A DNA stretch of 64,000 nucleotides from an uncultured Clostridia bacterium (lineage in GTDB: Bacteria; Bacillota; Clostridia; TANB77; CAG-508): NCBI GenBank assembly GCA_947631915.1, contig CANRNC010000008.1, forward strand, positions 3,305 through 67,304, in the 5' to 3' direction. Position numbers and translations under genes: made by a program. The notes beneath the pieces are model-generated. The model did no database searches. It saw only the letters and a list, made by a program, of their open reading frames with translations, and was not told the origin of the DNA. Positions within the stretch are counted from its first letter, which is position 1. Each line of letters starts with the position of its first letter. Positions 8,277 to 61,800 of this stretch are shown piece by piece.

Positions 8277-11200
8277 TTATTTATATAAGAATTTGATTTT
8301 ATTTATGTTTGGTCCATACTTTCTATTTTTTATGGTTATAGTTATTACATATCCACATATTCCTAATGATACTATTATCATTACAATAATTGCCGTACTT
8401 ATTACCATTCCTGTTTTTATTCCTATAACTATTTCTGCTTCTGACTTGTTGTTTTCAAAGTTTGACTCTTCAAAATGTAATTTATTGTCTGTCTCTTTTA
8501 TTTCTGCTATTGTTTTGTTTAATCCAAATGCTTCTTGTTCATTTTTCCACCTTAATACTACATCCACATATACTGAATCATTTTCTTTTAGCTCTACTTG
8601 TTCCATCATTGGTATACTTACTTTTCCATTTTTTTCTTGACAATATTGTATATTATCTTGTGGATAAAATCTCATACAACCTGGTATGTTCATTTCTAAT
8701 CTTGTTACTTTTCCTGCTACTTTACTTGGATTACTTACTTGAATTCTATATGTTATTCTTATATCGTCTGTCTTTATGTTTTTATTGCTTACTTCTATTT
8801 TTATTGCTTGATCTTCCGGCTGTGTACTTTCATATTCAACTTGTCCATTTCTTTCTATCTTTTGTATCCAATGATCTATTTTTAAGTCAAATTCTTGTCT
8901 TTCTAGCTTTATTGTTATTGCCTGTATTTCATACTTATCCTCTATTACTATTGTTTCTGTTGTACTTTCATATCCATATGGTGGATTTAATAATTCTAAT
9001 GTGTATTCTCCTTTATCTAATCCTTTTATTACATTATTTATGTCTTCTCCTGTTACATCTTCTACTACATTTCCTTCTTCATCTCTTATTAATATATGCA
9101 CATCTTCTAGATCTTCTATTTTTTCTCCTGTTTCTCCGTCTACTATCTCTATTTGTGCTTTATTTACTGGGTCTGATTCTACCGTTATCGTTTGTGGTCC
9201 TTGCTCGTCTTCTACTACTATTTCTAATGTTAAAGATTTGTATTCTGGTGGTGGATCTAATAATTCTAATGTATATTTACCATGTGGTAATCCTTCTATT
9301 ACACCATTTATGTCTTCTCCTGTTAGGTCTTCTACTACATTTCCTTCTTCGTCTTTTATTACTACGTGTACATCTTCTAAATCTTCTATGACTTCTCCTG
9401 TTTCTGCATCTTTAAACTCTAGTTTTATTTGACTTAATTCTTGTTCTATTACTATCTCTTGTACTCCTGTTACATCTTTGATTGTAAATTCTTTCCTTTT
9501 CATTGTTACATAACCTTTTTGTATATAGTCTTCATCCGTTATTTCTTTTTGTCTTAAAATATACTCTCCTATTGGTAATCCTTCTGTATAGTAGCTTTCT
9601 TCGCTTGATGTTGTAAATTCTCCTACTATTTCTTCTTTTATTACGTTTCCTTCTTCATCTTTTGTTTCTTTTACTATTTCAAATTCCATTCCTTCAAGTT
9701 TTTCTTTTGTTTCTTTATCTACTACATCTATTTGTATTTTTGTTCTCTCGTCTACCATTGTTATTGTATCTTTTACTTCTTCGCCTTCTCCGATTTTCCC
9801 TTGTGAATTTAATTTGAAACTTATTTCATTTGCTGTTACATATCCTGGGGCTGGTGTTTTTTCTACTAGTCTATATTCTTTGTCATATCCTAGCCCTTCT
9901 ATTCCTTGTGGATTTTCACCTGTTTCCCATTCCTGTACTACTGTTCCTTGTTGGTCTTGTATTTGTAGTATTGCTCCGCTTATTTGTTCTCCTTCTATAT
10001 TGGTTTTTACTGCATTTATACTTGTTTTATTATTTGTGTATACCTCTTTTATGCTATTTATCTCTCTTTGGTCTGTTTGATAGTTTCCGTTTATTTCTAT
10101 TATTTCTTCTCTCAATATATATCCTTCTGGTGCTTTTAATTCTTTTATGTAATATTTTCCTAGTGGTATTTCTTTGCTGAATTCTGCTATTCCGTTTTCG
10201 TTTGTTGTTACTGTTTCTATTAGTTCATTTTCTCTTTTTACTATCGTTCCATCTCTTCCTAGTATGTTTTCTTTTGCGTAAATTCCAAATATTGCTCCTG
10301 GTAGAACTGCTTGGTTATTTTCGTCTTGTTTTTCTATTTCTATGTCTAGTTTTTGTCTTTCGTTTCTAAATTTTGTTGTTTTGAATATTACTGGTGTTTT
10401 ACTTGCTTCTTCTCCATTTTCCCCCTGTTCATAACCTATTGTTATTTCTTTTTCTTCTGTATTATGTTTAAATCCTTCTCCTGCTACTGTTTGTCTTACA
10501 TAATATGTTCCTATTGGTAGGTTTTCTGCATATGCTATTCCTTCGCTATTACTTGTTACTGTTTGTACTACTTCTCCAGCTGTATATAGTGTTGTTTGAT
10601 TGTCTTGAGATATTATATCTTCTTTTGCTACTATTTCATATGTTGCTCTTGCTACTCCTCCTTCTTCATACGTTATTTCTCCGTTCTCAATTTTCTTTAT
10701 GTATTCTCCTACTGTTTCTATTTTTATACTTCCTACTTGGGCTTGGTTTTCTTGCTTTTGTACTACTACTATCTCATTTAACCCTTCGTCTATACAATAT
10801 GCTGCATTTCCCATTATCTCAAATTGTATTTTTTCTTTTGGAGTTAATTCTGTTTCTCCTCTATTACTGTTTCCTTCATATCCGTTTAATACATATCCCT
10901 CTGGTGCTTCTATTTCTTCTATTTCATAATTTCCTACCTCTAGTTTGACTGGTGTTATTAGAAATCCTTCACTTCCTGTTTCATATGGTGTCTCATAGCT
11001 TCCTTCTTCTTTATATCCATCTACTGTCCATATTATATTTGTTACTAATTGATCTGTATCTAAATTTCTTATTACATATTTTGCCGTCTTTCCTATTACA
11101 TTCTCTTTCGTTTTATCGTCGGTCTTATATATTTTTACTCTTGCTTCAAAGTTTGGATCTATTATAAATCTCATACTTTGTAATTGTCTTGAATCTTTTT

Positions 11201-24348: not shown

Positions 24349-24388
24349 TAAATTTGTTTTACCAAAATAAAATTTCTACTACATAAAA

Positions 24389-24421
24389 AATAACCGCTAT
24401 TTTATAGCGGTTATTTTTTTG
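24389..24421. terminator. bidirectional intrinsic terminator
   Basis: aaaaaataaccgctattttatagcggttatttttttg. Confidence 0.7.
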
Positions 24422-24426
24422 TTATT

Positions 24427-27400
24427 TTATATTACGAATTTCTTAATTCCTATTATTCCTGTGCCTAATATTGTTACTACTACCATTGATAGTGTAATAT
24501 ATGTCATTGGTATTTCTCTTCCTGTTTTTATTACTAGTAAAACTGGTGCATCATCTATATCGTCTTCTCCTGGTACTTCGTTGTCTGGTGTTGAGTCTAT
24601 GTCTGGTGTATGACTTGGATTGTCGTCTTGGCTTATTTCTGCTACATTTACTTTTCTTCCTAAATTGTTTTCTCCGTTTTTCCATGTTAGTATTATTTCT
24701 ACTTCAGCGCTTTCTCCTGGTTGTAGTAGTATATCTTGTAATTGGGTTGTGGCTACTTTTCCGTCTGCTCTTATATACCATTGTGGGTTATCTTCTTGTT
24801 TAAATTCTAGTCCTGCTGGAATGTAATCTGTAATTTCTTTTGCATATCCTGCTATTTCTCCTTCGTTTGTTATTTTTATTTTGTATGCAAATTTTACTAC
24901 TACTTTACTTACATCTTTTGTTTTTAGTTCTACTTTTAGTTCTGGTTCTGGATTTTCATATCCTGTATGTCCTGATTCTATTACAGTTGTGTTTCCGTTT
25001 TCTGTTACTATTGCTTTTGTTACCCATTTTAATAGTGATAAGTCAAAGTATTTTACTTTCACATCTTCATAGTCTATATCATCTTCATGTTTTTCGTCAT
25101 TATATACTTCGTCTCTTTTTGGAACTGAATCTATATCATCATTACTGTCTTGTGATATTTGTGCTACGTTTACTAGTATTTTGCTTTCTTCTCCTACTGC
25201 TTTTACTTGATATGTTACTTTGAAGGCTATTTGCACGTCTCTATAGTCTGGATTTGTATCACTTATTCCTGTTTCCTTGTTATATGCTTTTATTAAATTA
25301 TTTCTTCCTGTTGCTTTTCCTTGTTCTTCTGATAGGTAATCTGTTACTAGATATTTTGCTTTACTTACTTCTGTAGTTTCTTGTTGATTTTCGTCTAACA
25401 TTTTCCATCCATATTGTTTGTTTATTTCATTATCTACTATAAATTGTAATCCAACTGGCACATCGTCTGTTATTTCATTTGCATACCCATCTATTTCTCC
25501 TTCATTGTATACTCTTATTGTATATGTTACTATGTCTCCTGTGCATACGTCTAATGGATCTTTTGGATGTGTATATTTTATGTTTCTTGAATCATCTAAA
25601 CTTAATTCTGGATATCTTGTTGTTACGTCTGTTGTATTTATTTTTGTTATAAATTTTCTTAATGCTAAATCAAAGTTTCCTATTACTTTTACTTTATCAT
25701 AATCATCATCATCTTCTTGTCCTGGTACAAAAGGATTATTTTCATATTCTTCTTTATAGTGTGGTAATTCCGTGTCTCCTGGAATTACTAGGTTTCCATT
25801 TGGTAATGAATCTAAATCTTGTTCTGTATTTCCTTTTGTGTCTGTGAATTTTGTTATTTCTGCTATGTTTGTTTGTATATCTCCTACTTGTGTTTTATCT
25901 GATACTTTACATCTTATTGCTACATCTATATAATTTAATGTATTTCCACCATTGTATGCTGATAATAGTTTTCCATTTGGTCTTGATGTATATATTCCTT
26001 CTGGGTCTGCACTTTCCTTTGCTGTTATTTGTGTTTTTATTTCTCGTGTATTTTCATTATATGTCCAACCATATTTTTTATTTAATTCATCTTCTTTAAG
26101 GAATTCTAAATTTGCAGGTAAATGATCTGTTATTTCACTTACATATGCATCTATGTTTCCTTCATTATATACTCTTATAATATATGTTACTGTATTTCCA
26201 ACTCCAACAGTTAGCGCTTTCTTTGGATGTGTGTATGTTGCTGTTCCAAATCCTTGCTCTGCAATTCCTGCTTTTAGTGTTGTTGTGTCTACTATTGGTT
26301 CTCTTAAGTATCTTCCATTGTCGTCCACAATTTGTCTGTCATCTACTTGTACTATGAATTTTCTTAATGCTAAATCATATTTTGGAATTGTTATTATTAC
26401 CTTTTCAAAATCATCGTCGTCTTCATTTCCTGGTATATAGTCTTTTTCTCCTATTTCATTATCTTTATATTCTTGCCATCCTTGTTCTGTTTCTGGTAAT
26501 TTTGATGTTTCTTCTTCTGATGTTAAATCTATATTATCTGGTGTTGAATCTCTATCTTTGTCTTTTTCTACTATTGGTGTTTTATTTTTATCTGCCATTC
26601 CTGTTATTTCTGCTATATTTGTTATTTTGTAATCTTCTATTATTCCGTCTTCTATATTTGGTTCTAGTACTTCACATGTTATTTGTAAATCTATATAACT
26701 TAATATATTGTTTGTTCTATCATATCCTGGTAATAATATACCCGTACCAATACTTTGTCCAACATATTGTGATAGGTTATCACTTGCCCCTGTTATTGTG
26801 GTTAATGTCGTTGATGTTGCTTTACTTTCATATCTGTCTACTTCATTTTCACCATATTCTCTTAACCATTCTACATTTTCTACATATTTTAAGTATTTTG
26901 ATAAGTAATCAGTCACTTCTGTTATGTATGCTTGTTCACTTCCTTCGTTGTATATTCTTAATGTATATGTTACCTTATCTCCTATACTTACTTTTACTGG
27001 TTCTTTTTCATGATTATAGTCTGCTGTTGTTGCTGTTGCGTTTCTTAATTTTGTAGTGTCTGGATTTGGTACTCTGTTTGTTAATTCTTCTTTTGAGTAT
27101 ACTGTTACTCCTGTTGAATCTACTACTTTACTTATAAATTTCCTTAACGCTAAATCTATATGGTCTTCTAATATTATTTCTTCATCTGTTATAGTTATTG
27201 TTATTGTATTGGTTGCATTATCTACAGATATTTTTACTTTTCCTGATGATGTACTTGTTCCATCTAATGTTGCTCGATCTATTACATAACTTAATCCATC
27301 CTCTGATTCTTTTTTCGTTACTGTTAAATTTATTGGTTGTTCATATTTTTGATATCCTAATGGTGCTTCTGTTTCTACTATTGTATATTGATCTGGTTGT

Positions 27401-28527
27401 TCTCTATTAGCTTCAGTTATATCTATTCCGTTTGGTGTTATATTTACTTTTCCATCTGATCCAGTTGTATAGTCAGGTGTAGAATTTACCGTAAATTTTG
27501 CGCCTTGTAATATTTTTCCTTTTGTATCTACTTTTTTTAATTCTATATTATATTTACCTTTTATATCTTTTTCTCTTTTTACTGTTACAATTGGTTGAGC
27601 TTCTGTATTTGCATATACTGAAATTACTGTTTTAGAATTGCTTTTTATGTCATAACTTGAGTTTTCATTTGCCCCATCAACAAAATATTTATATATCATT
27701 TTTACATAGTACTCTCTTAATTTTCCTGCTAATTGACCACTATCTTCTCCAACTTCACTTGTAAATGTTTGTTCGTAAGTTTTTAGTACTGAATCACCTT
27801 TTGCTAAATATATTTTTGGAATTCCTGTTGCATTGCCTTCGGAATCTTGAAATTCTGAAGGATTTGTTAATTTCCATATTGCTAATTGTTGAGCAACTTC
27901 AATATCTAACTCACTTATTTCTGCTTCTGTTCCTTTTACGCTTAATTCTTCCATTGAGCTTTTAATTGTTTTACCATTCATTCCTGTAATGCCTAAATCA
28001 GTGCATGGAATTTTTTCTAGGAAAGCATCTTTTTCATCTTCACCTGGTATATACATATTATCTAATATCCATACTAGTCCATGAATTGTATCTTCATTAA
28101 ATGCTTTTACTTCTGTTTTACTTGTATAAAGAGCTTTTAATGTATCTAATACTCCATTTTCTTTTAAGTTATAAGGTCCTGAATATTGACTTTGTGAAGT
28201 TCCCACTTCTGCCGTAGGTTTTTGGTTTACTTGTGCTGAAGAATTAAAATTCGTGAAATCTCCATAACCTTCTGCTAAACAATAGAACACTTCTTTTGTC
28301 TCTATTGGTGCTTGTTCATTGTATGGTTGTATATTCCATATGTATTTTAGACTATTATGCCCTTGTGATGAACTCTGGAATGTATATACATATTTTTCAC
28401 CTGAATCATCTGTTCTTTGTGGGCTTATTCCAAACTTTGTATAGTTTGTCGCTGCTTGTATACATCCCGTAAAGATTGTTAGCACTACTATTAACATTAT
28501 TCCAATTTTTAGTAGCAAATTTTTCAT
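24427..28527 (-). CDS. thioester-domain (TED) surface adhesin, 1366 aa: signal peptide, N-terminal TED (YCLAEG Cys motif, QQLAIW Gln motif), SpaA/CnaB-like Ig-fold domains, three DUF11-like repeats (DLALRKFI...), C-terminal IKTG + TM + KKFVI
   Basis: Read directly from the translation. Paralog of 29104..32817, with near-identical N-terminal about 300 aa and C-terminal about 450 aa. Confidence 0.8.
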   Translation of the reverse strand: MKNLLLKIGIMLIVVLTIFTGCIQAATNYTKFGISPQRTDDSGEKYVYTFQSSSQGHNSLKYIWNIQPYNEQAPIETKEVFYCLAEGYGDFTNFNSSAQVNQKPTAEVGTSQSQYSGPYNLKENGVLDTLKALYTSKTEVKAFNEDTIHGLVWILDNMYIPGEDEKDAFLEKIPCTDLGITGMNGKTIKSSMEELSVKGTEAEISELDIEVAQQLAIWKLTNPSEFQDSEGNATGIPKIYLAKGDSVLKTYEQTFTSEVGEDSGQLAGKLREYYVKMIYKYFVDGANENSSYDIKSNSKTVISVYANTEAQPIVTVKREKDIKGKYNIELKKVDTKGKILQGAKFTVNSTPDYTTGSDGKVNITPNGIDITEANREQPDQYTIVETEAPLGYQKYEQPINLTVTKKESEDGLSYVIDRATLDGTSTSSGKVKISVDNATNTITITITDEEIILEDHIDLALRKFISKVVDSTGVTVYSKEELTNRVPNPDTTKLRNATATTADYNHEKEPVKVSIGDKVTYTLRIYNEGSEQAYITEVTDYLSKYLKYVENVEWLREYGENEVDRYESKATSTTLTTITGASDNLSQYVGQSIGTGILLPGYDRTNNILSYIDLQITCEVLEPNIEDGIIEDYKITNIAEITGMADKNKTPIVEKDKDRDSTPDNIDLTSEEETSKLPETEQGWQEYKDNEIGEKDYIPGNEDDDDFEKVIITIPKYDLALRKFIVQVDDRQIVDDNGRYLREPIVDTTTLKAGIAEQGFGTATYTHPKKALTVGVGNTVTYIIRVYNEGNIDAYVSEITDHLPANLEFLKEDELNKKYGWTYNENTREIKTQITAKESADPEGIYTSRPNGKLLSAYNGGNTLNYIDVAIRCKVSDKTQVGDIQTNIAEITKFTDTKGNTEQDLDSLPNGNLVIPGDTELPHYKEEYENNPFVPGQEDDDDYDKVKVIGNFDLALRKFITKINTTDVTTRYPELSLDDSRNIKYTHPKDPLDVCTGDIVTYTIRVYNEGEIDGYANEITDDVPVGLQFIVDNEINKQYGWKMLDENQQETTEVSKAKYLVTDYLSEEQGKATGRNNLIKAYNKETGISDTNPDYRDVQIAFKVTYQVKAVGEESKILVNVAQISQDSNDDIDSVPKRDEVYNDEKHEDDIDYEDVKVKYFDLSLLKWVTKAIVTENGNTTVIESGHTGYENPEPELKVELKTKDVSKVVVKFAYKIKITNEGEIAGYAKEITDYIPAGLEFKQEDNPQWYIRADGKVATTQLQDILLQPGESAEVEIILTWKNGENNLGRKVNVAEISQDDNPSHTPDIDSTPDNEVPGEDDIDDAPVLLVIKTGREIPMTYITLSMVVVTILGTGIIGIKKFVI

Positions 28528-28591
28528 AATAATTTCATTCCTTCCTAGAATATTTATTAATATTTTCCTTCCCTAATACATTTACAAATAT

Positions 28592-28670
28592 ATTTTAAGC
28601 TTTTTTAATATAAAGTCAATGGTAATATTTTGTTGATTTTGGGTGATTTTTGTTTTTTTACTTACGGATA
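28592..28670 (-). promoter_or_regulatory. conserved adhesin promoter module (TATCCGTAAG, N47, CCATTGACTTTAT, 16 nt, TAAAAT)
   Basis: cttacggata at 28661..28670 and ataaagtcaatgg at 28610..28622 on the + strand. RBS aggaaggaatg before the ATG. Confidence 0.55.
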
Positions 28671-29046
28671 AAAGAAAAAAGAACTATTTTCCCCATAATA
28701 TTACATTTGTATAACATTTTTTTAGTTCTTTTTTTACTTTTGTTCTCTTTTTTTATTCTATTAATTATTTGCGTAAGCTTTTTCGGCATTTTTATGTTTT
28801 TAAATATTTGTGTATATACTATCATAAATGCCAATATAATTTTTTCTTTTCGATTATACTACCTTTTTTTGCATTTTGCAACAGTTTATGTATATTTGCT
28901 TAAAAATATCTACAATTAATTAAGAAATTAAATAGATGATAGTGTATCAATAAATTTCACATACAAACCTCTTGCAGATTTAAGAGTACTGTGCACTATT
29001 CTTTTATACAGATGTATATTGTTTTATTTATACATTACTTACATTT

Positions 29047-29074
29047 TATAGGGGCATGGTATCCCGTGCCCCTA
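29047..29074. terminator. GC-rich palindromic terminator (family GGGCAYGGT..ACCGTGCCC)
   Basis: tataggggcatggtatcccgtgcccctat between the two paralogous adhesin genes. Confidence 0.6.
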
Positions 29075-29103
29075 TTCAGATTATATTTTGTCTATTAATT
29101 TTT

Positions 29104-32100
29104 TTACAATACGAATTTCTTAATTCCTATTATTCCTGTTCCTAATATTGCTATTACTGTTGCTGTTAATCCTAGGTATTGCTTTTGTATATCTATTCCT
29201 GTTTTTATTACTAGTAAAACTGGTGCATCATCTATATCGTCTTCTCCTGGTACTTCGTTGTCCGGTGTTGAGTCTATGTCTGGTGTATGACTTGGATTGT
29301 CGTCTTGGCTTATTTCTGCTACGTTTACTTTTCTTCCTAAGTTGTTTTCTCCGTTTTTCCATGTTAGTATTATTTCAACTTCTGCACTTTCTCCTGGTTG
29401 TAGTAGTACATCTTGTAATTGTGTTGTGGCTACTTTTCCGTCTGCTCTTACATACCATGCTGGATTATCTTCTTGTTTAAATTCTAGTCCTGCTGGAATG
29501 TAATCTGTAATTTCTTTTGCATATCCTGCTATTTCTCCTTCGTTTGTTATTTTTATTTTGTATGCAAATTTTACTACTACTTTATTTACATCTTTTGACT
29601 TTATCTCTACTTTTAAGTCTGGTTCTGGATTTTCATATCCTGTATGTCCTGATTCTGTTACTGTCGTTTTTCCGTTTTCTGTTACTATCGCTTTGGTTAC
29701 CCATTTTAATAGTGATAAGTCAAAGTATTTTACTTTTACGTCTTCATAGTCTATATCATCTTCATGTTTTTCGTCATTATATACTTCGTCTCTTTTTGGA
29801 ACTGAATCTATGTCGTCATCGCTGTCTTTTGATATTTGTGCTACGTTTACTAGTATTCTACTTTCTTCTCCTACTGCTTTTACTTGATATGTTACTTTGA
29901 AAGCTATTTGTACGTCTCTATAGTCTGGATTAGTATCACTTATTCCTGTTTCCTTGTTATATGCTTTTATTAAATTATTTCTTCCGGTTGCTTTTTCTTG
30001 TTCTTCTGATAAGTAATCTGTTACTAGATATTTTGCTTTGCTTACATCTGTTGTTTCTTGTTGGTTTTCGTCTAACATTTTCCATCTATATTGTTGATTT
30101 ATTTCATTATCTACTACAAATTGTAATCCAAATGGTACGTCATCTGTTATTTCATCTGCATAACCGTCTATTTCGCCTTCGTTGTATATTCTTATTGTAT
30201 ATGTTACTATGTCTCCTGTACATACGTCTAATGGATCTTTTGGATGTGTATATTTTATGTTTCCTGAATCATCTAAACTTAATTCTGGATATCTTGTTGT
30301 TACGTCTGTTGTATTTATTTTTGTTATGAATTTTCTTAATGCTAAATCAAATTTAGGACTTGTTATTATTACCTTTTCGAAATCATCATCGTCTTCGTTT
30401 CCTGGTATATAGTCTTTTTCTCCTATTTCATCATCTTTATAATCTTGCCAATCTTTTTCTGTTTTTGGTAAGTCTGGTGTTACATCATCTGGTTTTGAAT
30501 CTATATCTGTATCTACTGGATTTTGGTCTTTGTCTAACATTCCTGTTATTTCTGCTATATTTGTTATCTTATATTCTTTCTCATTATTATTCATTTCTGG
30601 TTGTAGTACTTCACATGTTATTTGTACATCTATGTAACTTATCCTATCATTTTCTTTGTCATAAGCTGGTATTAAAACTCCCCCGCTTATAGTTTTTCCG
30701 ATTAATGCTTTTAAATCATCACTTGCTCCTGTTATTATTGTAGAATTTGTTGATGTTGCTTTACTTCCATAAATGCTTTCATCGTTTTCAGTATATGTTA
30801 CATTCCATTCTTCTGTTTCTATGCATTTTAAGTATTTTGATAAATAGTCTGTTATTTCTGTTATATACGCATTTGATTGTCCTTCATTATATACTCTTAA
30901 AGTATATGTTACTTTGTCTCCAACACTTACTTTTAATGGCTCTTTTGTATGGTTATATTCTGATGTTGTTCCTGTTGCTTGTTTTAAATTGGTTGTATCT
31001 ACATTTGGGTTTCTATTTTCTAGTTGCTCATTTGTATATACCATTTCACCTTTTGTATTTACTACTTTACTTATAAATTTTCTTAATGATAAATCTATGT
31101 TGTCCTCTATAACTATTACTGTTATTGTATCCTCATCTATTTCTATTTTTACTTTTCCTGATGCTTTTGACTTTTCGTCTAGTGTTACTGTGCCTAATAC
31201 ATAGCTTTCTCCGTCTGCTGACAATTTCTTTGTTACTTCTAACACTATTGTTCCATCATATATTACATATCCGTCAGGAGCATCTATTTCAGTTAATGTG
31301 TATGTGTCTTTTTCTCCTACATTACTACTATTAATTTCTTTATCTTCAACTAAAGTTGCAAATCCATATTGATCTGTTGTATAATTTTGTCCATCTACTG
31401 TGAACGTTGCACCTTGCAATACTTCTCCTTTTGTATTTTGTTTATTTAATCTTACTGTATATGCATTCTTTTTTTCTTCATTCTTTACTGTTATTGTTAT
31501 TGTATTTGTTTCTGTATCTATCTCTACCTTTCCAGATGAACTACTCGTATCATCTAAAGTTGCCTGATCTATTACATAACTTAACCTATCATCTGATTCT
31601 TTCTTTGTGACGTGCAATTCTATTGTTCCTTTGTATTTTTTATATCCCTCTGGTGCTTTTGTTTCTACTATTGTGTATTCGTCTGTGTCAGTTATATTAT
31701 TTATTGTTACACTATCTACTTTTACTGTTCCATCTGCAGTTGTTGTGTATTTTTGCCCATTTACTGTAAATTCTGCTCCTGATAATGGAGTTCCGTCTGT
31801 TCCCTCTTTTTTTAGTATTATATCATATTCTCCTGTTAATTCTTTTTCTCTTGTTACTGTTACAATTGGTTGTGCTTCTGCATTTGCATATACTGTAATT
31901 ACTGTTTTAGAATCTGCATTTAGTGCATAGCTTTTTTCTTGAGCATCTTTTGCTCCATCAACAAAATATTTATATACCATTTTTACATAGTATCCTCTTA
32001 ATTTTCCTTGTGATTGATCTATGTCTTCGTCTTCAAGGTTTTCTGGAAATGTTAAATCATAAGTTTTTAAATCTGAACTATTTTTTGATAAATAAATGGT

Positions 32101-32817
32101 TGGAATTCCAACTGAATCTCCTTCTGAATTTTCAAATGCTGAATGATTTGTTAAATTCCATATTGCTAATTGTTGAGCTACCTCTATGTCAAAATCTGTT
32201 ATTTCAGCGTTTGTTCCTCTTACTTTCAATTCATCCATTGAACTTTTTATTGTACCACTCATTCCATTTATATCTCCTAAATTGGTACAATTAATTTTTT
32301 CTAGAAAGTTATCTTTATCATCTTCACCTGGTATGTACATATTATCTAATATCCATACTAATCCGTGAATTGTGTTCTCATTAAATGCAATTACTTCTGA
32401 TTTACCACTATAAACAACTCTTAATGCTTCCAAGACTCCACTTGCTTTTAAGTTATAAGCTTTATATTCACTTGTTGAAGCTCCTCCTGTTGTTGCAGGT
32501 TTTTGACCTACTTGTGCTGAAGAATCAAAATCCGAAAAATTTCCATAGCCTTGTGCTAAACAATAGAATACTTCATCTGTTTCTATTGGTGTTTGGTTTG
32601 TGTATGGTTTTATGTTCCATATGTATTTTAAACTATTTGAGTCTTTAGATGAACTTTGAAATGTATATACATAGGTGTCTGTTTCATCAGTTCTCTGTGG
32701 GCTTATACCAAATGTAGTATAATTTGTTGTTGCTTGTATGCAACTTGTGTTTACAGCTAATATTATTATTAATACTATTGCAATTTTTAATAAAGTTTTT
32801 TTCATGATAACTTTCAT
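29104..32817 (-). CDS. thioester-domain (TED) surface adhesin paralog, 1237 aa, same architecture with a variable middle (SpaA/CnaB-like domains), C-terminal IKTG + TM + KKFVL
   Basis: N-terminus MKKTLLKIAIVLIIILA...FYCLAQGYG...VAQQLAIW. C-terminal three DUF11-like repeats nearly identical to 24427..28527. Confidence 0.8.
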   Translation of the reverse strand: MKVIMKKTLLKIAIVLIIILAVNTSCIQATTNYTTFGISPQRTDETDTYVYTFQSSSKDSNSLKYIWNIKPYTNQTPIETDEVFYCLAQGYGNFSDFDSSAQVGQKPATTGGASTSEYKAYNLKASGVLEALRVVYSGKSEVIAFNENTIHGLVWILDNMYIPGEDDKDNFLEKINCTNLGDINGMSGTIKSSMDELKVRGTNAEITDFDIEVAQQLAIWNLTNHSAFENSEGDSVGIPTIYLSKNSSDLKTYDLTFPENLEDEDIDQSQGKLRGYYVKMVYKYFVDGAKDAQEKSYALNADSKTVITVYANAEAQPIVTVTREKELTGEYDIILKKEGTDGTPLSGAEFTVNGQKYTTTADGTVKVDSVTINNITDTDEYTIVETKAPEGYKKYKGTIELHVTKKESDDRLSYVIDQATLDDTSSSSGKVEIDTETNTITITVKNEEKKNAYTVRLNKQNTKGEVLQGATFTVDGQNYTTDQYGFATLVEDKEINSSNVGEKDTYTLTEIDAPDGYVIYDGTIVLEVTKKLSADGESYVLGTVTLDEKSKASGKVKIEIDEDTITVIVIEDNIDLSLRKFISKVVNTKGEMVYTNEQLENRNPNVDTTNLKQATGTTSEYNHTKEPLKVSVGDKVTYTLRVYNEGQSNAYITEITDYLSKYLKCIETEEWNVTYTENDESIYGSKATSTNSTIITGASDDLKALIGKTISGGVLIPAYDKENDRISYIDVQITCEVLQPEMNNNEKEYKITNIAEITGMLDKDQNPVDTDIDSKPDDVTPDLPKTEKDWQDYKDDEIGEKDYIPGNEDDDDFEKVIITSPKFDLALRKFITKINTTDVTTRYPELSLDDSGNIKYTHPKDPLDVCTGDIVTYTIRIYNEGEIDGYADEITDDVPFGLQFVVDNEINQQYRWKMLDENQQETTDVSKAKYLVTDYLSEEQEKATGRNNLIKAYNKETGISDTNPDYRDVQIAFKVTYQVKAVGEESRILVNVAQISKDSDDDIDSVPKRDEVYNDEKHEDDIDYEDVKVKYFDLSLLKWVTKAIVTENGKTTVTESGHTGYENPEPDLKVEIKSKDVNKVVVKFAYKIKITNEGEIAGYAKEITDYIPAGLEFKQEDNPAWYVRADGKVATTQLQDVLLQPGESAEVEIILTWKNGENNLGRKVNVAEISQDDNPSHTPDIDSTPDNEVPGEDDIDDAPVLLVIKTGIDIQKQYLGLTATVIAILGTGIIGIKKFVL

Positions 32818-34014: not shown

Positions 34015-34999
34015 ATGAATTTATTTATGAATAATCTCACTAATATTGAGCCAGTAAATAAAGAATTAAATTTAGTAAAATATGAAACAATAGATATTAA
34101 GAATTTAATTTATTGCATAAGAGGAAAACAAGTTATGCTAGATAGTGATGTAGCAATGTTATATCATTATCAAACTAAAAGAATAAATGAAACAGTTACT
34201 AGAAATAAGGAAAGATTTCCAGAAAATTTTTGTTTTCAGCTAACGGAAGATGAGTTTTCATGTTTAAGGTCGCAAATTGCGACCTTATTGGAAAGCGAAG
34301 ATATGCGGTCGCAATTTGCGACCGCATGAGAAAAAAGAGAATAGCAAGAGAAATAAAAGTAAACTTCCTTATGCGTTCACAGAACAAGGTATAGCAATGC
34401 TTTCGGGTCTATTAAGAAATGAAATTGCAGTTCAAGTGAGTATAAACATAATGAATGCATTTGTTGAAATGAGAAAATTTATTTCCATAAATGGACAAGT
34501 TTTTGAAAGATTAACAAATGTTGAATATAGATTATTAGAACATGATAATAAATTCAATCAAGTATTTAATGAATTACAAAAGAATAAAGAACAAGAATTT
34601 AAACAAAAAATATTTTTTAAAGGACAAATATGGGATAGCTATGAACTAATAATTGATATTATAAAAACAGCACAAAGTAAAATAGTAATAATAGATAATT
34701 ATATAGACGATACTATTCTTAAAATGCTACAAAAGAAAAATAAAAATGTCCAAGCAATTATTTTAACTTCACAAAATTGTAATCTAACAAAACTAGATAT
34801 TAAGAAGTTTAATGAGCAATACGGGGCACTAAAAATAGCAAGAACAGATAAATTTCATGATAGATTTATTATTATAGATAACAAAGAACTTTATCATTGT
34901 GGAGCATCACTCAAAGACTTAGGTAAAAAATGTTTTGGAATTAATAAGATAGAGGGAATAGAATTTATAGAATATATAAATAAAATAATTAATTTTTGA
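34015..34999 (+). CDS. ORF6N-domain DNA-binding protein (frame broken by a single-base indel)
   Basis: IRGKQVMLDSDVAMLYHYQTKRINETVTRNKERFPENFCFQLTEDEF..LRSQIAT and ..LPYAFTEQGIAMLSGLLRNEIAVQVSINIMNAFVEMRKF are the two halves of an ORF6N domain. Removing one C in atgCGGtcg (~34306) joins them as ...SEDMGRNLRPHEKK.... Confidence 0.65.
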
Positions 35000-58847: not shown

Positions 58848-61800
58848 ATGGAAAATAGTAATACATTACATGTTGGTCTTGACGTCGGTTCTACAACTGT
58901 AAAAGTAGCAGTATTAGATGAAGAACTAGATACTATATATACTGCATATGAAAGACACTTTTCAGATACAAAAAATACTATTTGTAATTTATTAGAAGTT
59001 CTAGTAGAAAAGTATCCTAATAATGATTTTACAATATCACTTACTGGGTCAGGAGCTATGTCTGCAGCTACTTTTTTAGACTTACCTTTTATTCAAGAAG
59101 TTGTTGCATGTAAGCGTTCTGTTGAAAAATATATACCAGAAACTGATGTAGTAATAGAGCTTGGCGGAGAAGATGCAAAAATAATTTATTTTGGTAAATC
59201 TGTTGAACAACGTATGAATGGAACTTGTGCAGGTGGTACAGGTGCTTTTATAGATCAAATGGCTAGTTTATTACATACAGATACTGAAGGATTAAATAAA
59301 TTAGCAAAAAATTATAAAACAATATATCCTATAGCTTCTAGATGTGGTGTTTTTGCCAAAACTGATATACAACCTTTAATTAATGAAGGAGCAGCAAAGG
59401 AAGATATTTCTGCTTCTATATTTCAAGCTGTTGTTAATCAAACTATCAGTGGTCTTGCTTGTGGTAGACCTATTCGTGGGCATGTTGCTTTTTTGGGTGG
59501 TCCTCTAAATTACCTTTCTGAATTAAGACAAAGATTTATTGAAACTTTAGGTTTAACTAATGAAACTACTATAATACCCGAAGATGCTCATCTTCTTGTT
59601 GCGAAAGGTGCAGCACTTGATTCTGTTAATTCATCTTCTGTTTCTATAGAAAAATTAAAAAGTAAAATTGAAGTTTTAAAAGTTTCACATGATGATACTT
59701 CAAAACCTTTAAAACCACTATTTTCTATAGACGCTGAATACGATGAGTTTCAAAAACGCCATGCAAAAGACAAAGTTAAAAGAAAAAGTTTAGAAAACTT
59801 TAGAGGAGATTGTTTTATAGGTATTGATGCCGGTTCTACTACTACAAAACTAGTAGTTATAGATAGAGATAGTAATTTATTATATTCCTTATATAGAAAT
59901 AACGAAGGTGATCCTTTAAAAAGCGTTATAGCTATGTTGAAAGAGACATACTCTGTGCTTCCTAAAGAAGCTAATTTAAGATTTTCTGGAGTTACAGGTT
60001 ATGGTGAAAAATTAATACAAACAGCATTAAATGTAGACTTAAATGAAATCGAAACTATTGCACATCATAGAGCAGCTTGTGAATTTATGCCTGATGTAAC
60101 AAGTATCGTTGACATAGGTGGTCAAGATATGAAATACATAAAAATGAAAAATGGTGTGATTGATAATATAATGTTAAATGAAGCCTGTTCTTCTGGATGT
60201 GGTTCTTTTATTGAAACTTTTGCTAAAAGTTTAAATCTGTCAATACACGATTTTGTTGAAGCAGCTTTAGAATCAAGAACTCCTGTTGATTTAGGCTCAC
60301 GATGTACTGTATTTATGAATTCTAAAATCAAGCAAGCGCAAAAAGAAGGTTATTCTGTAGGCGATATTTCAGCTGGGTTATCTTATTCTGTAATAAAAAA
60401 TGCAATTCAAAAAGTTATGAAGGTTAGAGATCCGAAAACTTTAGGAGATCATATTATTGTTCAAGGAGGAACTTTTCTTAATGATGCTGTACTCCGTGCA
60501 TTTGAATTAATTGTTGGCAAAGAAGTTGTTCGCCCAGATATTTCAGGATTAATGGGTGCTTATGGTATTGCTTTACTTGCAAAAGAACAATATGAAGCCA
60601 ATTTTGATATGGAATATATGTCTACTCTTACTAGTTTAAAAGATTTAGATAAGTTAAATATACAAATCAATCATACTCGTTGTAATGGGTGTGAAAACCA
60701 TTGTTTACTTACAATAAATAAATTCAATAATAATAAACGTTATATTTCAGGAAATCGTTGTGAAAAAGGTGCAGGTATTGTATCTTCAAACTCAAAGCTA
60801 CCTAATCTAATGAAATATAAAAATGAAAGATTATTTGCATATGAACCTTTATCAGAAGATAAAGCTTTTCGTGGAACAATAGGAATTCCAAGAGTATTAA
60901 ATATGTATGAAGATTATCCATTTTGGTTTACTTTTTTAACACATCTAGGATTTAGGGTCATTCTTTCAGAAAAAAGTACTCGTAAAACTTATGAAAAAGG
61001 TATGGAATCAATGCCTTCTGAATCAGTATGCTATCCAGCTAAACTTTCACATGGTCATATTAAGAGCTTAATTGATTCTGGTATAAAAACTATATTCTAT
61101 CCTTGTATACCTTACTCTAGAAAAGAATATTCTAAAGCCGATAATCATTATAATTGTCCTATAGTAATTTCTTATTCTGAAGTAATAAAAAATAATGTAG
61201 AAGAATTAAAAGATATTAAATATCTTAATCCATTTTTACCTTTTGATTCTAAAAATCTAGTTAACAGAATGTTGGAATTGGATGAATTTAAAGAATATAA
61301 GTTTACCAGAAAAGAATTATGTGAAGCTGTTGAGCTTGCAGAAAATGAATATCAAAGGTTTAAACATGATGTTCAAAGTAAAGGTCAAGAAGCTCTAAAA
61401 TATATGGAAGAACACAATTTAAAAGGAATTGTACTTTCTGGTAGACCTTATCACGTCGATCCAGAAATTAATCATGGTATTGATACTTTAATAACTGGAC
61501 TAGGTCTTTGTGTTTTAACAGAGGATTCTATCTCAAATCTTACTGAAGCAAAAAGACCACTTCGTGTAGTTGATCAATGGGTATATCATGCTCGCTTATA
61601 TGCAGCTGCTGACTTTGTTGGAAAACATGATAATTTAGAACTTGTACAACTTAATTCTTTTGGTTGTGGAGTCGATGCTGTTACAACAGACCAAGTTGAA
61701 GAAATTCTTTCAAGCTATGAAAAAATGTATACTTTAATAAAAATAGATGAAGTTAATAATCTTGGTGCAGTTCGTATTCGTATTCGTTCGCTACTTGCAA

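Follow-up and report, generated by a model that had tools for sequence, protein, structure and literature searches.

Thioester-isopeptide (TIE) adhesins of Class I, such as SfbI and Cpa of Streptococcus pyogenes and CpTIE of Clostridium perfringens (PDB 5a0l, 4c0z, 2xid, 5a0g), carry behind a Sec signal an N-terminal thioester domain (TED) on a stalk of isopeptide domains. Their TEDs are marked by [YFL]CΦ, TQxxΦW-like and terminal Gln motifs. The TQxxΦW motif is a third, accessory one whose Gln and Trp are dispensable for bond formation, and the bond-forming Gln sits in a weak ΦQζΦΦ motif close to the domain end (PMC6194298). Class II proteins (BaTIE, SaTIE, EfmTIE86) bear LPXTG-type signals, LPATG in BaTIE, and the TIE proteins characterised to date are either anchored by sortase or built into pili (PMC6194298). 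CLIPPER is an isopeptide domain by crystallography; Acinetobacter silvestris B9T28_05395 (PDB 9ifr), a Gram-negative protein with an OmpA-like anchor, has a stalk of tandem CLIPPER domains with a Lys...Asn isopeptide pattern (PMC12617251). For C. difficile CbpA the motif NVQTG has been proposed; it is uncleaved by SrtB in vitro and the anchoring mode is open (PMC4155245).

We describe two tandem genes on the minus strand of a 64,000-nt stretch of DNA (the window, meaning the whole stretch analysed) from an uncultured gut bacterium of the Clostridia with low GC and a cell wall; the RodA/FtsW, MinD, MinE, GH25-LysM lysozyme and DapB ORFs of the window indicate a walled host. Both genes are present in the ORF list, and features are collected in Table 1. 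Our preferred reading, held with modest confidence, is that they encode paralogous fibrillar adhesins of the TIE type whose tail is an uncleaved membrane anchor. A previous sequence-only reading of the locus stands in part: its ORFs, motifs and tails hold, and its domain counts, the near-identity of its N-terminal modules and its third ORF do not; as to interpretation, TED adhesins and recombination are supported, and the partner Gln and an unrelated third adhesin are not.

Table 1. Features of the adhesin locus (window positions; aa, residues of the encoded protein)
Feature	Position	Strand	Basis
Third adhesin, open part of frame, 2014 codons stop-to-stop	8277..14321	-	Pfam, sequence reading
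Third adhesin tail: IGIKTG, TM, KNRK plus 15 aa	8280-8459	-	Sequence
16-bp hairpin, A and T runs at sides	24385..24419	.	Between convergent pyrE-like gene and paralog 1
Adhesin paralog 1, 1366 aa	24427..28527	-	ORF list; Pfam DUF11/CLIPPER 77.2 bits, SpaA 35.5 bits, TED 17.6 bits
Tail, aa 1332-1366: VIKTG, REIPMTY, hydrophobic segment, KKFVI	24430..24534	-	Sequence, tail consensus
Terminal CLIPPER module, aa 1160-1336 (FDLSLLKWV ... NVAEIS ... DIDSTPDN ... EDDIDDAPVLLVIKTG)	24520..25050	-	Homologue search
High-identity block (91-98% DNA) with 29255-30355	24578..25678	-	Sliding identity on MAFFT alignment
Three internal CLIPPER (DUF11) domains, aa 456-1158	25054..27162	-	PF01345 and TIGR01451, motif positions
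SpaA (CnaB-type) domain, aa 327-450	27178..27549	-	PF17802 E 1.1e-8, residues 327-407
Predicted TED, aa 26-322, short Class I-like form	27562..28452	-	AF2 model, Foldseek, PF08341 in relatives
Gln311 codon in AQPIVTV, predicted thioester partner	27595..27597	-	Motif in relatives, PMC6194298
QQLAIW, aa 213-218, accessory TQxxΦW motif	27874..27891	-	Conservation, PMC6194298
Cys83 codon (FYCLA), predicted thioester Cys	28279..28281	-	Conservation in aligned relatives
Signal peptide, aa 1-25 (MKNLLLKIGIMLIVVLTIFTGCIQA, then A)	28453..28527	-	Sequence reading
Adhesin paralog 2, 1237 aa	29104..32817	-	ORF list; Pfam DUF11 57.1 bits, SpaA 53 bits
Tail: VIKTG, IDIQKQY, hydrophobic segment, KKFVL	29107..29211	-	Sequence
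Terminal CLIPPER module, aa 1031-1207	29197..29727	-	Paralog alignment, motif positions
Two internal CLIPPER domains, aa 573-1029	29731..31101	-	Pfam, motif positions
Two SpaA domains, aa 334-570	31108..31818	-	PF17802, 2 stretches
Predicted TED, aa 30-327	31837..32730	-	63% identity to paralog 1 region
Gln316 codon, predicted thioester partner	31870-31872	-	Motif position
QQLAIW	32158-32175	-	Motif position
Cys86 codon	32560-32562	-	Motif position

Each paralog begins with a Sec-type signal peptide ending in IQA. Relatives keep the VQA/IQA-A end but not the Cys preceding it, which points to a type I signal peptide without a lipobox; a lipobox reading of the paralog 1 signal was rejected for this reason. 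The hairpin beside paralog 1 is likely a bidirectional terminator.

Predicted thioester head

The sequence-only reading had proposed thioester-domain adhesins in which SpaA/CnaB-like domains and DUF11-like repeats follow the head, and structure prediction of the N-terminal domain as a check. The AF2 model of that domain in paralog 1 (pLDDT 91, pTM 0.92) has a TED fold: Foldseek matches 1-12 in the PDB are TEDs without exception (4c0z, 5a0l, 2xid, 2xi9, 4bug), the probability being 0.99-1.0 for Cpa 4c0z and SfbI 5a0l, and the matched structures are of Class I only. The Pfam TED family PF08341 is matched by 56 of 66 relatives (best E 8e-10); against its cut-off of 22 bits a homologue of equal length, from locus L045, scores 27.6 bits, full-length paralog 1 scores 17.6 bits (E=0.005) and its isolated domain 21.1 bits, both below the cut-off. 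All 107 aligned relatives have the predicted thioester Cys, and 105 of them the Tyr before it; at the QQLAIW positions the Gln is found in 105 and the Trp in all 107, and a motif xQP[VIL][VIAL]x[VI] ends the domain in 72 of 79. These relatives share 20-27% identity, yet keep all three TED motifs. The N-terminal domain is a predicted TED on the strength of its modelled fold, the family profile and the unvarying Cys, in agreement with the proposal, and the heads of both adhesins probably bond covalently to a target.

A TED-like fold lacking the thioester, used as a non-covalent binding head or with another role for the Cys, would suit the scores slightly under the Pfam cut-off, the TM-scores of 0.45-0.54 between model and solved TEDs, a sequence search of the PDB with the window TED that found no solved TED, and the Ala at the ζ position (the residue after YCL), where a hydrophilic residue is expected. 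The retention of the three motifs, with an invariant Cys, at such low identity is nonetheless hard to explain without the bond, and we hold this alternative to be highly improbable.

FYCLA[EQ]GYG and QQLAIW occur in both paralogs, and the Gln of VAQQLAIW had been taken as the partner of the Cys. We rejected this assignment: QQLAIW corresponds to the accessory TQxxΦW (PMC6194298), and the terminal, ΦQζΦΦ-type AQPIVTV fits instead. To judge by this motif, Gln311 of paralog 1 and Gln316 of paralog 2 are the likely bond-forming residues. The Cys-to-Gln spacing would then be about 228 aa, in contrast to about 150 in Class I examples, and the window TED lacks detectable sequence similarity to solved TEDs. 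Class II TEDs (PMC6194298) have the same motifs, and the same bond chemistry is predicted here; long-form relatives, in which 280-400 aa lie between Cys and Gln and a beta-rich segment is inserted, may recall the Class II beta-sandwich insertion. Both window proteins have the short form.

Stalk domains and the high-identity block

PF01345, TIGR01451 and PF17802 score above cut-off on the stalk, which by these profiles is built of SpaA and CLIPPER (DUF11) isopeptide-type domains; CLIPPER domains set it apart from Class I TIE adhesins. Each internal CLIPPER domain of paralog 1 starts with DLALRKF and ends with EDDxD. There are four CLIPPER domains and one SpaA domain in paralog 1, and three and two in paralog 2, so that the domain types given by the sequence-only reading were right and its counts (three DUF11 repeats each) were not. 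The second SpaA domain of paralog 2, missing in paralog 1, appears as an insertion in the DNA alignment. The tandem CLIPPER stalk and Lys...Asn pattern are shared with B9T28_05395, and the profile of A2 matched 9ifr weakly (E 0.013). The window CLIPPER domains are about twice as long and carry an acidic DxDSxPxN...EDDxD stretch ahead of the last strand, and unlike in B9T28_05395 the terminal copy is a specialised one that continues into a TM tail.

Recombination between paralogs with near-identical N- and C-terminal modules had been suggested. Near-identity holds for a 3′ block of about 1.1 kb, the only part with 91-98% identity, and not for the N-terminal modules (63% protein and 72-83% DNA identity). 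On the MAFFT alignment, sliding identity is 72-83% in the genes outside the block, 84% over the last 150 nt and about 57% in the flank downstream; the repeat spacing between the paralogs is 4677 nt. The abrupt rise of DNA identity from about 77% to about 95% speaks for gene conversion, and the gain and loss of domains, together with the much more similar 3′ block, is consistent with recombination, as suggested, or with gene conversion.

The terminal CLIPPER module and its tail

The terminal CLIPPER module has 402 homologues, with at least 559 stretches in species-representative genomes, and occurs across hundreds of uncultured gut Clostridia. Neither the Lys of FDLSLLKW nor the Asn of NVAEIS varies in it. 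Both paralogs end as had been described, in VIKTG, a hydrophobic stretch and KKFV[IL]. The consensus of 234 distinct tails of this kind reads EDDIDDAPVxL[STA][IV]xTG, followed by a hydrophobic run of about 20 residues and KK[FY]V[LI]. The register from EDDIDDAPV to G is ungapped (L 95%, [STA] 89%, [IV] 81%, x variable, G 98%). The T of TG is kept in 86% and replaced by Leu in 10% (for example in a large TVALG subgroup), the rest of the tail being unchanged. Position 2 is I/V in 81% and Pro in 4% (10 of 234 tails: SPATG, SPQTG, APATG, TPQTG), hence not Pro in 96%; x is Lys in 48%, matching the LPKTG of the clade itself. At this motif P0081 and P0162 read NPKTG and MPKTG, and an NVQTG tail exists within the clade.

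At internal junctions 9-11 aa separate EDDxD from the start of the next domain, and EDDID lies 11 aa from the G of TG, which places TG at the domain boundary; from the repeat register VLLVIK would be the last beta-strand. No low-complexity spacer before TG was seen in IKTG tails, unlike the canonical LP[KQ]TG/IPQTG tails of the clade. The tail is present in 48 of 54 long TED-family proteins and LPxTG in none of the 54, a further difference from Class I TIE adhesins; in the data examined the tail was never seen apart from a CLIPPER-type terminal domain.

A third protein of the window had been described as an unrelated adhesin, a single 2190-aa ORF at 8277..14854 ending in IGIKTGM, a TM segment and KNRK. 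The ending was found, but the ORF was not: the span of 6578 nt is indivisible by 3, the frame stays open no further than 14321 and breaks upstream, and two other frames contain the start with the signal peptide and a stretch rich in Gly. The open part has 8 SpaA domains, 1 Cna_B domain and a divergent terminal CLIPPER-like module. By an unscored reading of its sequence, the last domain (FDLKIDHWIQK ... LRWKNEQEAFGLNKTIAEIKET ... EAEIVIGIKTG) appears to be a divergent copy of the terminal module of the paralogs, at odds with an unrelated C-terminus. The three tails being homologous, their agreement amounts to a single observation.

Sorting signal or membrane anchor

In line with the sequence-only reading, no sortase was found in the window by a TLxTC-type regex over six frames, by phmmer of its ORFs with S. 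aureus SrtA or by Pfam scans of neighbouring ORFs. Its sorting-signal claim holds as to layout (motif, hydrophobic stretch, KK); VIKTG as a sortase pentapeptide is on balance disfavoured. Were the tail a true cell-wall sorting signal with the pentapeptide [STA][IV]xTG, a housekeeping sortase of relaxed specificity, or a second unrecognised one, would cut between T and G and link the adhesin to peptidoglycan. The three-part layout, the kept T and G, the frequent Lys at x and the occasional Pro at position 2 are in its favour, as are NPKTG, MPKTG and the NVQTG tail. SPATG and SPQTG match the (S/P)PxTG substrate motif of C. difficile SrtB, and the usual tails resemble CbpA in having a beta-branched hydrophobic residue for Pro at position 2, then a TM segment and basic residues. 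Related genomes contain canonical LP[KQ]TG or IPQTG substrates and sortases, so the machinery is at hand, and sortase anchoring is the precedent among characterised TIE adhesins (PMC6194298).

However, the sortases found adjoin a canonical LP[KQ]TG protein in four loci, one of whose contigs also has an adhesin ending in LSLKTG...KKFVL, and that of L045 is the sole one in 1.46 Mb of adhesin-centred loci, not above chance expectation. The LPXTG model TIGR01167 matches the canonical tails of the clade and not IKTG tails, for which NCBIfam anchor models gave no match at E<=10. The motif stands in fixed register with the last strand of a conserved domain end, in hundreds of proteins, unlike that of CbpA, whose NVQTG, the sole precedent in the literature for Val at position 2, is not cleaved by SrtB in vitro (PMC4155245); even some SPxTG proteins stay unprocessed in vivo (PMC5569036). 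Because Pro is rare, Leu replaces Thr in 10%, the spacer is missing, canonical substrates lie beside the sortases and the LPXTG model is blind to these tails, we do not take the tail as a sortase signal, and consider that reading possible but unlikely.

The tail, alone or with the terminal CLIPPER module, might instead be the recognition unit of a different sorting or processing system specific to gut Clostridia, analogous to exosortase/PEP-CTERM or rhombosortase/GlyGly-CTERM. Its conservation exceeds the need of a generic TM anchor (G 98%, a GG-like TM position, a near-fixed IKK[FY]V[LI]), curated anchor models miss it, and adhesin copies per genome are numerous, such as five adjacent genes in L003. 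Yet a candidate enzyme was not found among recurrent neighbours of adhesin loci; the Ig-like TM protein, REC-GGDEF protein and YabG peptidase that recur look like the plain gene order of a single locus, and the window has none of them. Since the tail in the data examined always accompanies a CLIPPER-type terminal domain, its conservation may reflect common descent, and we think such a system improbable.

An uncleaved membrane anchor has a parallel in the giant staphylococcal adhesins Ebh and Embp, which have a C-terminal membrane-spanning anchor and are likewise very long repetitive Gram-positive surface fibres without LPXTG. They differ in their unrelated repeat domains, in having no thioester head and in a tail without TG or KK[FY]V[LI]. 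Against the membrane-anchor reading stand the three-part layout of a sorting signal with strongly kept TG, the frequent Lys at x as in LPKTG, the few tails with Pro at position 2, the sortase or pilus attachment of characterised TIE proteins and the mechanical oddity of a covalent head on a non-covalent anchor.

In the mechanism we propose, each adhesin would be exported by Sec and cut after IQA by signal peptidase I. The Class I-like TED would form an internal thioester, with predicted pairs Cys83-Gln311 and Cys86-Gln316 and the QQLAIW helix beside the bond, and an amine on the target would attack it to give a covalent link, by analogy with SfbI and Cpa. The stalk of SpaA and CLIPPER (CnaA-like) domains, which appear to retain Lys and Asn where internal isopeptide bonds would require them, would keep the head away from the cell and cross the wall. 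The last strand of the terminal CLIPPER domain would run into TG, after which come 3-8 polar residues, a hydrophobic stretch of about 20 and a carboxy-terminal KK[FY]V[LI]; this tail would sit in the membrane as an uncleaved stop-transfer anchor and not be a sortase substrate. Gain and loss of stalk domains would diversify the paralogs while gene conversion keeps their 3′ ends alike. Across uncultured gut Clostridia, the tail would be a widespread, hitherto undescribed anchor that resembles a cell-wall sorting signal but probably does not act as one.

Thioester-domain head and stalk

The ORF list places both adhesin genes on the minus strand exactly where the sequence-only reading had them (see table), in a window of 28.3% G+C. 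Each product begins with a Sec-type signal peptide with an IQA end. We rejected FTGC of signal peptide 1 as a lipobox, because its Cys is not conserved in paralog 2 or in relatives while the [IV]QA site is. Between the third adhesin of the window and the paralog pair stands a gene for a type I signal peptidase; nothing indicates that it is dedicated to the adhesins. Promoter-like sites were no commoner than in shuffled sequence, and we therefore make no statement on transcription units.

The head domain of both adhesins is a divergent thioester domain (TED) at the edge of the Pfam model. That model (PF08341, gathering score 22 bits) gave 17.6 bits with full-length protein 1 (E 0.005) and 21.1 bits with its isolated domain; no PF08341 match was listed for protein 2 in the Pfam scan. 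Relatives scanned individually matched at E≤0.01 in 56 of 66 cases (best 8e-10), and in locus L045, from a related genome, an equally long homologue scored 27.6 bits. A word-indexed search for relatives of the head yielded five only; an exhaustive profile search yielded 194, the subfamily's representatives at the 50% identity level, 38 of them at E≤1e-10.

The TED fold claimed from sequence motifs was borne out by structure prediction. An AlphaFold2 model of the head built from a 66-sequence alignment reached pLDDT 91 and pTM 0.92 (a 7-sequence alignment had given pLDDT 48). The best twelve Foldseek matches in the PDB were all TEDs, including the N-terminal TED of Cpa (4c0z), the SfbI TED (5a0l) and Cpa 2xid, 2xi9 and 4bug, with E down to 6.9e-5 and target-normalised TM 0.45-0.54. 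Probability was 0.99-1.0 for the top eight, and matches ranked below the twelve were noise. A profile of the family found no solved TED among PDB sequences, so the Cys and Gln cannot be aligned to solved TEDs by sequence. Among the family proteins P0126-P0273, the Cys-to-Gln distance distinguishes two head size classes. Heads of the window type span 194-234 aa and are Class I-like in structure; the other class spans 280-400 aa. These larger heads have an inserted beta-rich segment with a YIVGPF-type motif, which recalls the beta-sandwich insertion of Class II TEDs.

Three motifs are described for TEDs: [YFL]CΦζ with the Cys, a weak ΦQζΦΦ with the bond-forming Gln, and TQxxΦW, whose Gln and Trp adjoin the bond and are not required for it (PMC6194298). 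FYCLA, present in both window proteins, fits the first; among aligned N-terminal domains the Cys is found in 107 of 107 and the preceding Tyr in 105 of 107, and the ζ position is K or R in most relatives and Ala in the window proteins. The Gln of QQLAIW, earlier named as the thioester partner, must be replaced in that role. QQLAIW, within helix 182-197 of the model, corresponds to TQxxΦW with Gln in place of Thr, in a motif QQxA[IL]W that is essentially invariant (Gln 105/107, Trp 107/107); it is assigned as the third, accessory motif. A Gln of the ΦQζΦΦ type sits instead in AQPIVTV, near the domain end of both proteins, and xQP[VIL][VIAL]x[VI] is found directly ahead of the stalk in 72 of the 79 relatives with enough sequence. 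The predicted thioester pairs are accordingly placed by motif at Cys83-Gln311 in protein 1 and Cys86-Gln316 in protein 2.

The stalks contain SpaA domains (PF17802; 35.5 bits in protein 1 and 53.0 bits in protein 2, cut-off 23.1) and DUF11 domains (PF01345, 77.2 and 57.1 bits, cut-off 24.6; TIGR01451, 86.5 and 45.6 bits, cut-off 24). DUF11 was renamed CLIPPER in 2025, and in its crystal structure (PDB 9ifr) a Lys-Asn isopeptide bond lies inside a CnaA-like domain (PMC12617251). Both domain types had been recognized earlier, with three DUF11 repeats assigned to each paralog; by motif positions and Pfam that count holds for protein 2 (three CLIPPER, two SpaA), while protein 1 has four CLIPPER and one SpaA. 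Three signatures recur in each CLIPPER repeat: DLxL[RL]K[FW] with its Lys, N[IV]A[EQ]I[ST] with its Asn, and [YT]NEG. The Lys and Asn are invariant across 26 terminal modules (the last CLIPPER domain, running into the tail). By analogy with 9ifr, this Lys and Asn may pair in an isopeptide bond. Every CLIPPER repeat of both paralogs also has, ahead of its last strand, an invariant acidic segment, DxDSxPxN...(G)EDDxD, which resembles a metal-binding site placed where two domains join and is not known to be described for 9ifr.

We are confident of the adhesin part of the mechanism, whose chemical steps are deduced from family membership: both proteins would be exported through Sec, a Cys-Gln thioester would form by itself in the head and may bond covalently to an amine on the target, and a SpaA/CLIPPER stalk of isopeptide type would carry the head.

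Divergence between the two genes changes stepwise. DNA identity is 72-83% over the 5' two-thirds, 91-98% in a 3' block of about 1.1 kb and 84% in the final 150 nt, falling to about 57% in the downstream flanks; each protein also has a domain that the other lacks, a CLIPPER in protein 1 and a SpaA in protein 2. Such steps within one gene pair argue for gene conversion or mosaic recombination, in line with the recombination between paralogs that had been suggested. Of the near-identical terminal modules on which that suggestion was based, the C-terminal one stands (the last ~400 residues are nearly identical) and the N-terminal one does not (63% identity over the first 450 residues).

Coordinates of the features discussed, in the window or in loci (L) of related genomes
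Feature	Location	Strand	Details
Paralog 1	window 24427..28527	-	1366 aa
Paralog 2	window 29104..32817	-	1237 aa
Conserved 3' block of the paralogs	window 24578-25678 and 29255-30355	-	
Acidic CLIPPER segment (example)	window 24553-24620	-	
Third adhesin, broken 5' end	window 14250-14900	-	
Type I signal peptidase	window 17086-17730	-	TIGR02227, 141 bits
ORF6N-domain gene, apparently split	window 34015-34999	+	overlapping frames 34015..34329 and 34277..34999
CoA-enzyme activase-type protein	window 58848-63188	+	1446 aa; two BcrAD_BadFG ATPase stretches, DUF2229
Adhesin gene array	L003 1-20963		1.67-Mb contig ERZ28760378 contig_4147
ORF ending SNVQTG, TM, SKRK	L032 13139-13915	-	258 codons
Three genes 3' of the adhesin (example)	L045 10765-13590		
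Cohesin-like/sortase/dockerin cluster	L045 13726-17809		
Cohesin-like/sortase/dockerin cluster	L084 and L085 8867-14211		
Cohesin-like/sortase/dockerin cluster	L086 8831-14452		
Sortase	L045 14875-15483		PF04203, 81 bits

The terminal module and its tail

A search for further proteins ending in a KTG-type motif and a transmembrane (TM) segment was proposed with the original observation. The last CLIPPER domain plus tail retrieved 402 proteins, many at 100% coverage, and a scan of one genome per species gave at least 559 confirmed stretches of the module. The 79 loci kept from that scan are all from metagenome-assembled genomes of uncultured gut Clostridia, sampled from human, mouse, rabbit, ruminant and other sources. 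Clostridium sp. CAG:571 and CAG:354 are among the names given; both probably belong to the GTDB order TANB77. A paper on a TANB77 'pilin' was set aside, as it concerns Tad-type pili, unrelated to these proteins. The adhesin family is strongly expanded in some genomes: one contig has at least five adjacent adhesin genes, with SpaA, CLIPPER and Cna_B domains and products of 5044, 871, 320, 2954 and 3490 aa.

An ungapped alignment of 234 distinct tails from EDDIDDAPV gave the consensus V-[IML]-L(95%)-[STA](89%)-[IV](81%, P 4%)-x(K 48%)-T(86%, L 10%)-G(98%), with other residues in 4% at the Thr position, which would be the scissile one. After the TG come 3-8 polar residues and then a hydrophobic stretch of about 20; the C-terminus, IKK[FY]V[LI], hardly varies. 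Of the 54 TED-family proteins that are 900 aa or longer, 48 have this tail, the other six looking truncated or divergent, and LPxTG is found on 0/54. The terminal-module profile had no match at all among PDB sequences, and our literature search found no paper on IKTG or VKTG with sortase, nor on such a tail.

The third adhesin (stop at 8277) ends in IGIKTG, TM, KNRK. It had been called unrelated to the paralogs, but its last domain appears, on an unscored reading of the sequence, to be a diverged version of the paralogs' terminal module; its tail is for that reason not independent evidence. Nor is it one 2190-aa ORF at 8277..14854, as first described: the main ORF is open only from 14321, and a start resembling a signal peptide, MRKNEMKG...IIITCIIMVTLLTVTFVLS, and a segment rich in Gly, YGAKGGNGNSYGDHG...AAAGGGGGGGG, occupy two frames, both different from that of the main ORF. 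Either a pseudogene or assembly indels would account for the break. The ORF6N-domain gene is a second broken gene of the window, which hints at assembly indel errors. The large CoA-enzyme activase-type protein further along is an ordinary one, unrelated to the adhesins.

Sorting signal or membrane anchor

The layout of a sorting signal had been recognized in these tails with a pentapeptide other than LPXTG, and that layout holds: in the paralogs the TG motif is followed by 22-25 hydrophobic residues and KKFV[IL], a hydrophobic stretch with a basic C-terminus. The pentapeptides, VIKTG in the paralogs and GIKTG in the third adhesin, are neither LPXTG nor a validated variant (Pro at position 2, or Ala in class E). 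TIGR01167 and all other NCBIfam anchor models gave no match to the IKTG tails at E≤10; canonical tails of the same clade, as a positive control, scored 11.9-16.9 bits on TIGR01167 (cut-off 15.9).

Cleavage of the tail at T|G as a sortase-type signal is possible, if doubtful. It would explain the three-part layout, the conserved TG and the frequent Lys at x, and it has precedent in the solved thioester-isopeptide-type adhesins, which are sortase-anchored (PMC6194298). A few tails even have Pro at position 2 (SPATG, SPQTG, APATG, TPQTG, NPKTG, MPKTG), but 96% do not, and NVQTG of Clostridioides difficile CbpA, with Val at that position, was not cleaved by SrtB in vitro (PMC4155245). Some SPxTG proteins, too, go unprocessed in vivo (PMC5569036). 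The same NVQTG pentapeptide, disputed as a signal in CbpA, stands ahead of the TM segment in an ORF of locus L032. Against cleavage also stand the tails with Leu for Thr, such as the abundant TVALG group: because the rest of the tail is unchanged in them, its role evidently survives loss of the scissile residue. The position of the motif argues likewise. In protein 1, the next domain starts 9-11 residues after EDDxD at each of the three internal junctions, and the G of TG comes 11 residues after EDDID, which puts TG exactly at the domain boundary; VLLVIK would then, from this register, be the connecting last strand of the terminal module.

Substrates and enzymes of the clade point the same way. 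Canonical LP/IPxTG substrates (LP[KQ]TG and IPQTG tails, the latter in L016 and L055) occur in 7 of 83 loci, and they differ from the adhesin tails in their low-complexity N/K/T/G-rich spacer before the motif, in their R/K-rich end and in their TIGR01167 score. The 64-kb window has no sortase, as noted from the start, and 1.46 Mb of adhesin-centred loci has just one, in L045, immediately downstream of a cohesin-like protein whose C-terminus reads TLPKTG, TM, SKKN; one in 1.46 Mb is the chance expectation for genomes of about this size. Three more sortase loci show the same pairing of sortase with canonical substrate (KLPQTG, TLPKTG), and on one of these contigs there is an adhesin gene as well, its product ending LSLKTG...LIKKFVL. 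The sortase of L045 belongs to a cluster conserved in related genomes, which runs: a cohesin-like protein with an LP[KQ]TG anchor, a small sortase (~200 aa, no class assigned by NCBIfam), a Big_2 plus dockerin protein and a cadherin-like protein. The cluster looks like a small sortase-anchored cohesin-dockerin system.

Taken further, the tail could be a new lineage-wide sorting signal, made up of the terminal CLIPPER strand, [STA][IV]xTG, TM and KK[FY]V[LI], cleaved at T|G and anchoring hundreds of thioester adhesins covalently to the wall; the enzyme would be a sortase that prefers a beta-branched residue over Pro, or another transpeptidase. We regard this as unlikely. Wall anchoring is possible in principle, because the host is walled: the window encodes RodA/FtsW, MinD, MinE, a GH25-LysM lysozyme and DapB, and these also dismiss a wall-less cell as a trivial reason for a TM anchor. 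Recognition of the tail by a dedicated sorting system of another kind is highly improbable. Behind the adhesin gene, 29-37 of the 79 genome loci share the same three genes: one for a 309-aa protein with Ig-like domains and a TM segment at its N-terminus, one for a REC-GGDEF protein and one for YabG, the sporulation peptidase. As candidate tail processors these were set aside, being synteny of one orthologous locus and absent from the window.

We lean towards an uncleaved C-terminal membrane anchor as the mode of retention; the anchor would be built into a specialised terminal CLIPPER module.

Novelty and significance

TED adhesins and CLIPPER stalks are already known kinds of protein. What appears new is a large TED subfamily that lies on the margin of the Pfam model, has been sampled only in uncultured gut Clostridia and is coupled to a conserved non-LPXTG tail for which there is no curated model. 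Thioester adhesins are the sole bacterial adhesins known to form covalent bonds with their targets, and the examples studied to date are from cultured pathogens and fixed to the wall by sortase.

These surface proteins would have practical interest if CAG:354 and CAG:571 do belong to TANB77. An association between TANB77 abundance and checkpoint immunotherapy response has been described (PMC11680825).

The mode of anchoring, once known, would tell either that a covalent adhesin works from a plain membrane anchor or that sortase-like enzymes accept a proline-free motif. Interest would be clearly higher if the tail proves to be a cleaved sorting signal: an all-covalent chain would then run from a host or dietary ligand to peptidoglycan in an order of uncultured gut Clostridia.
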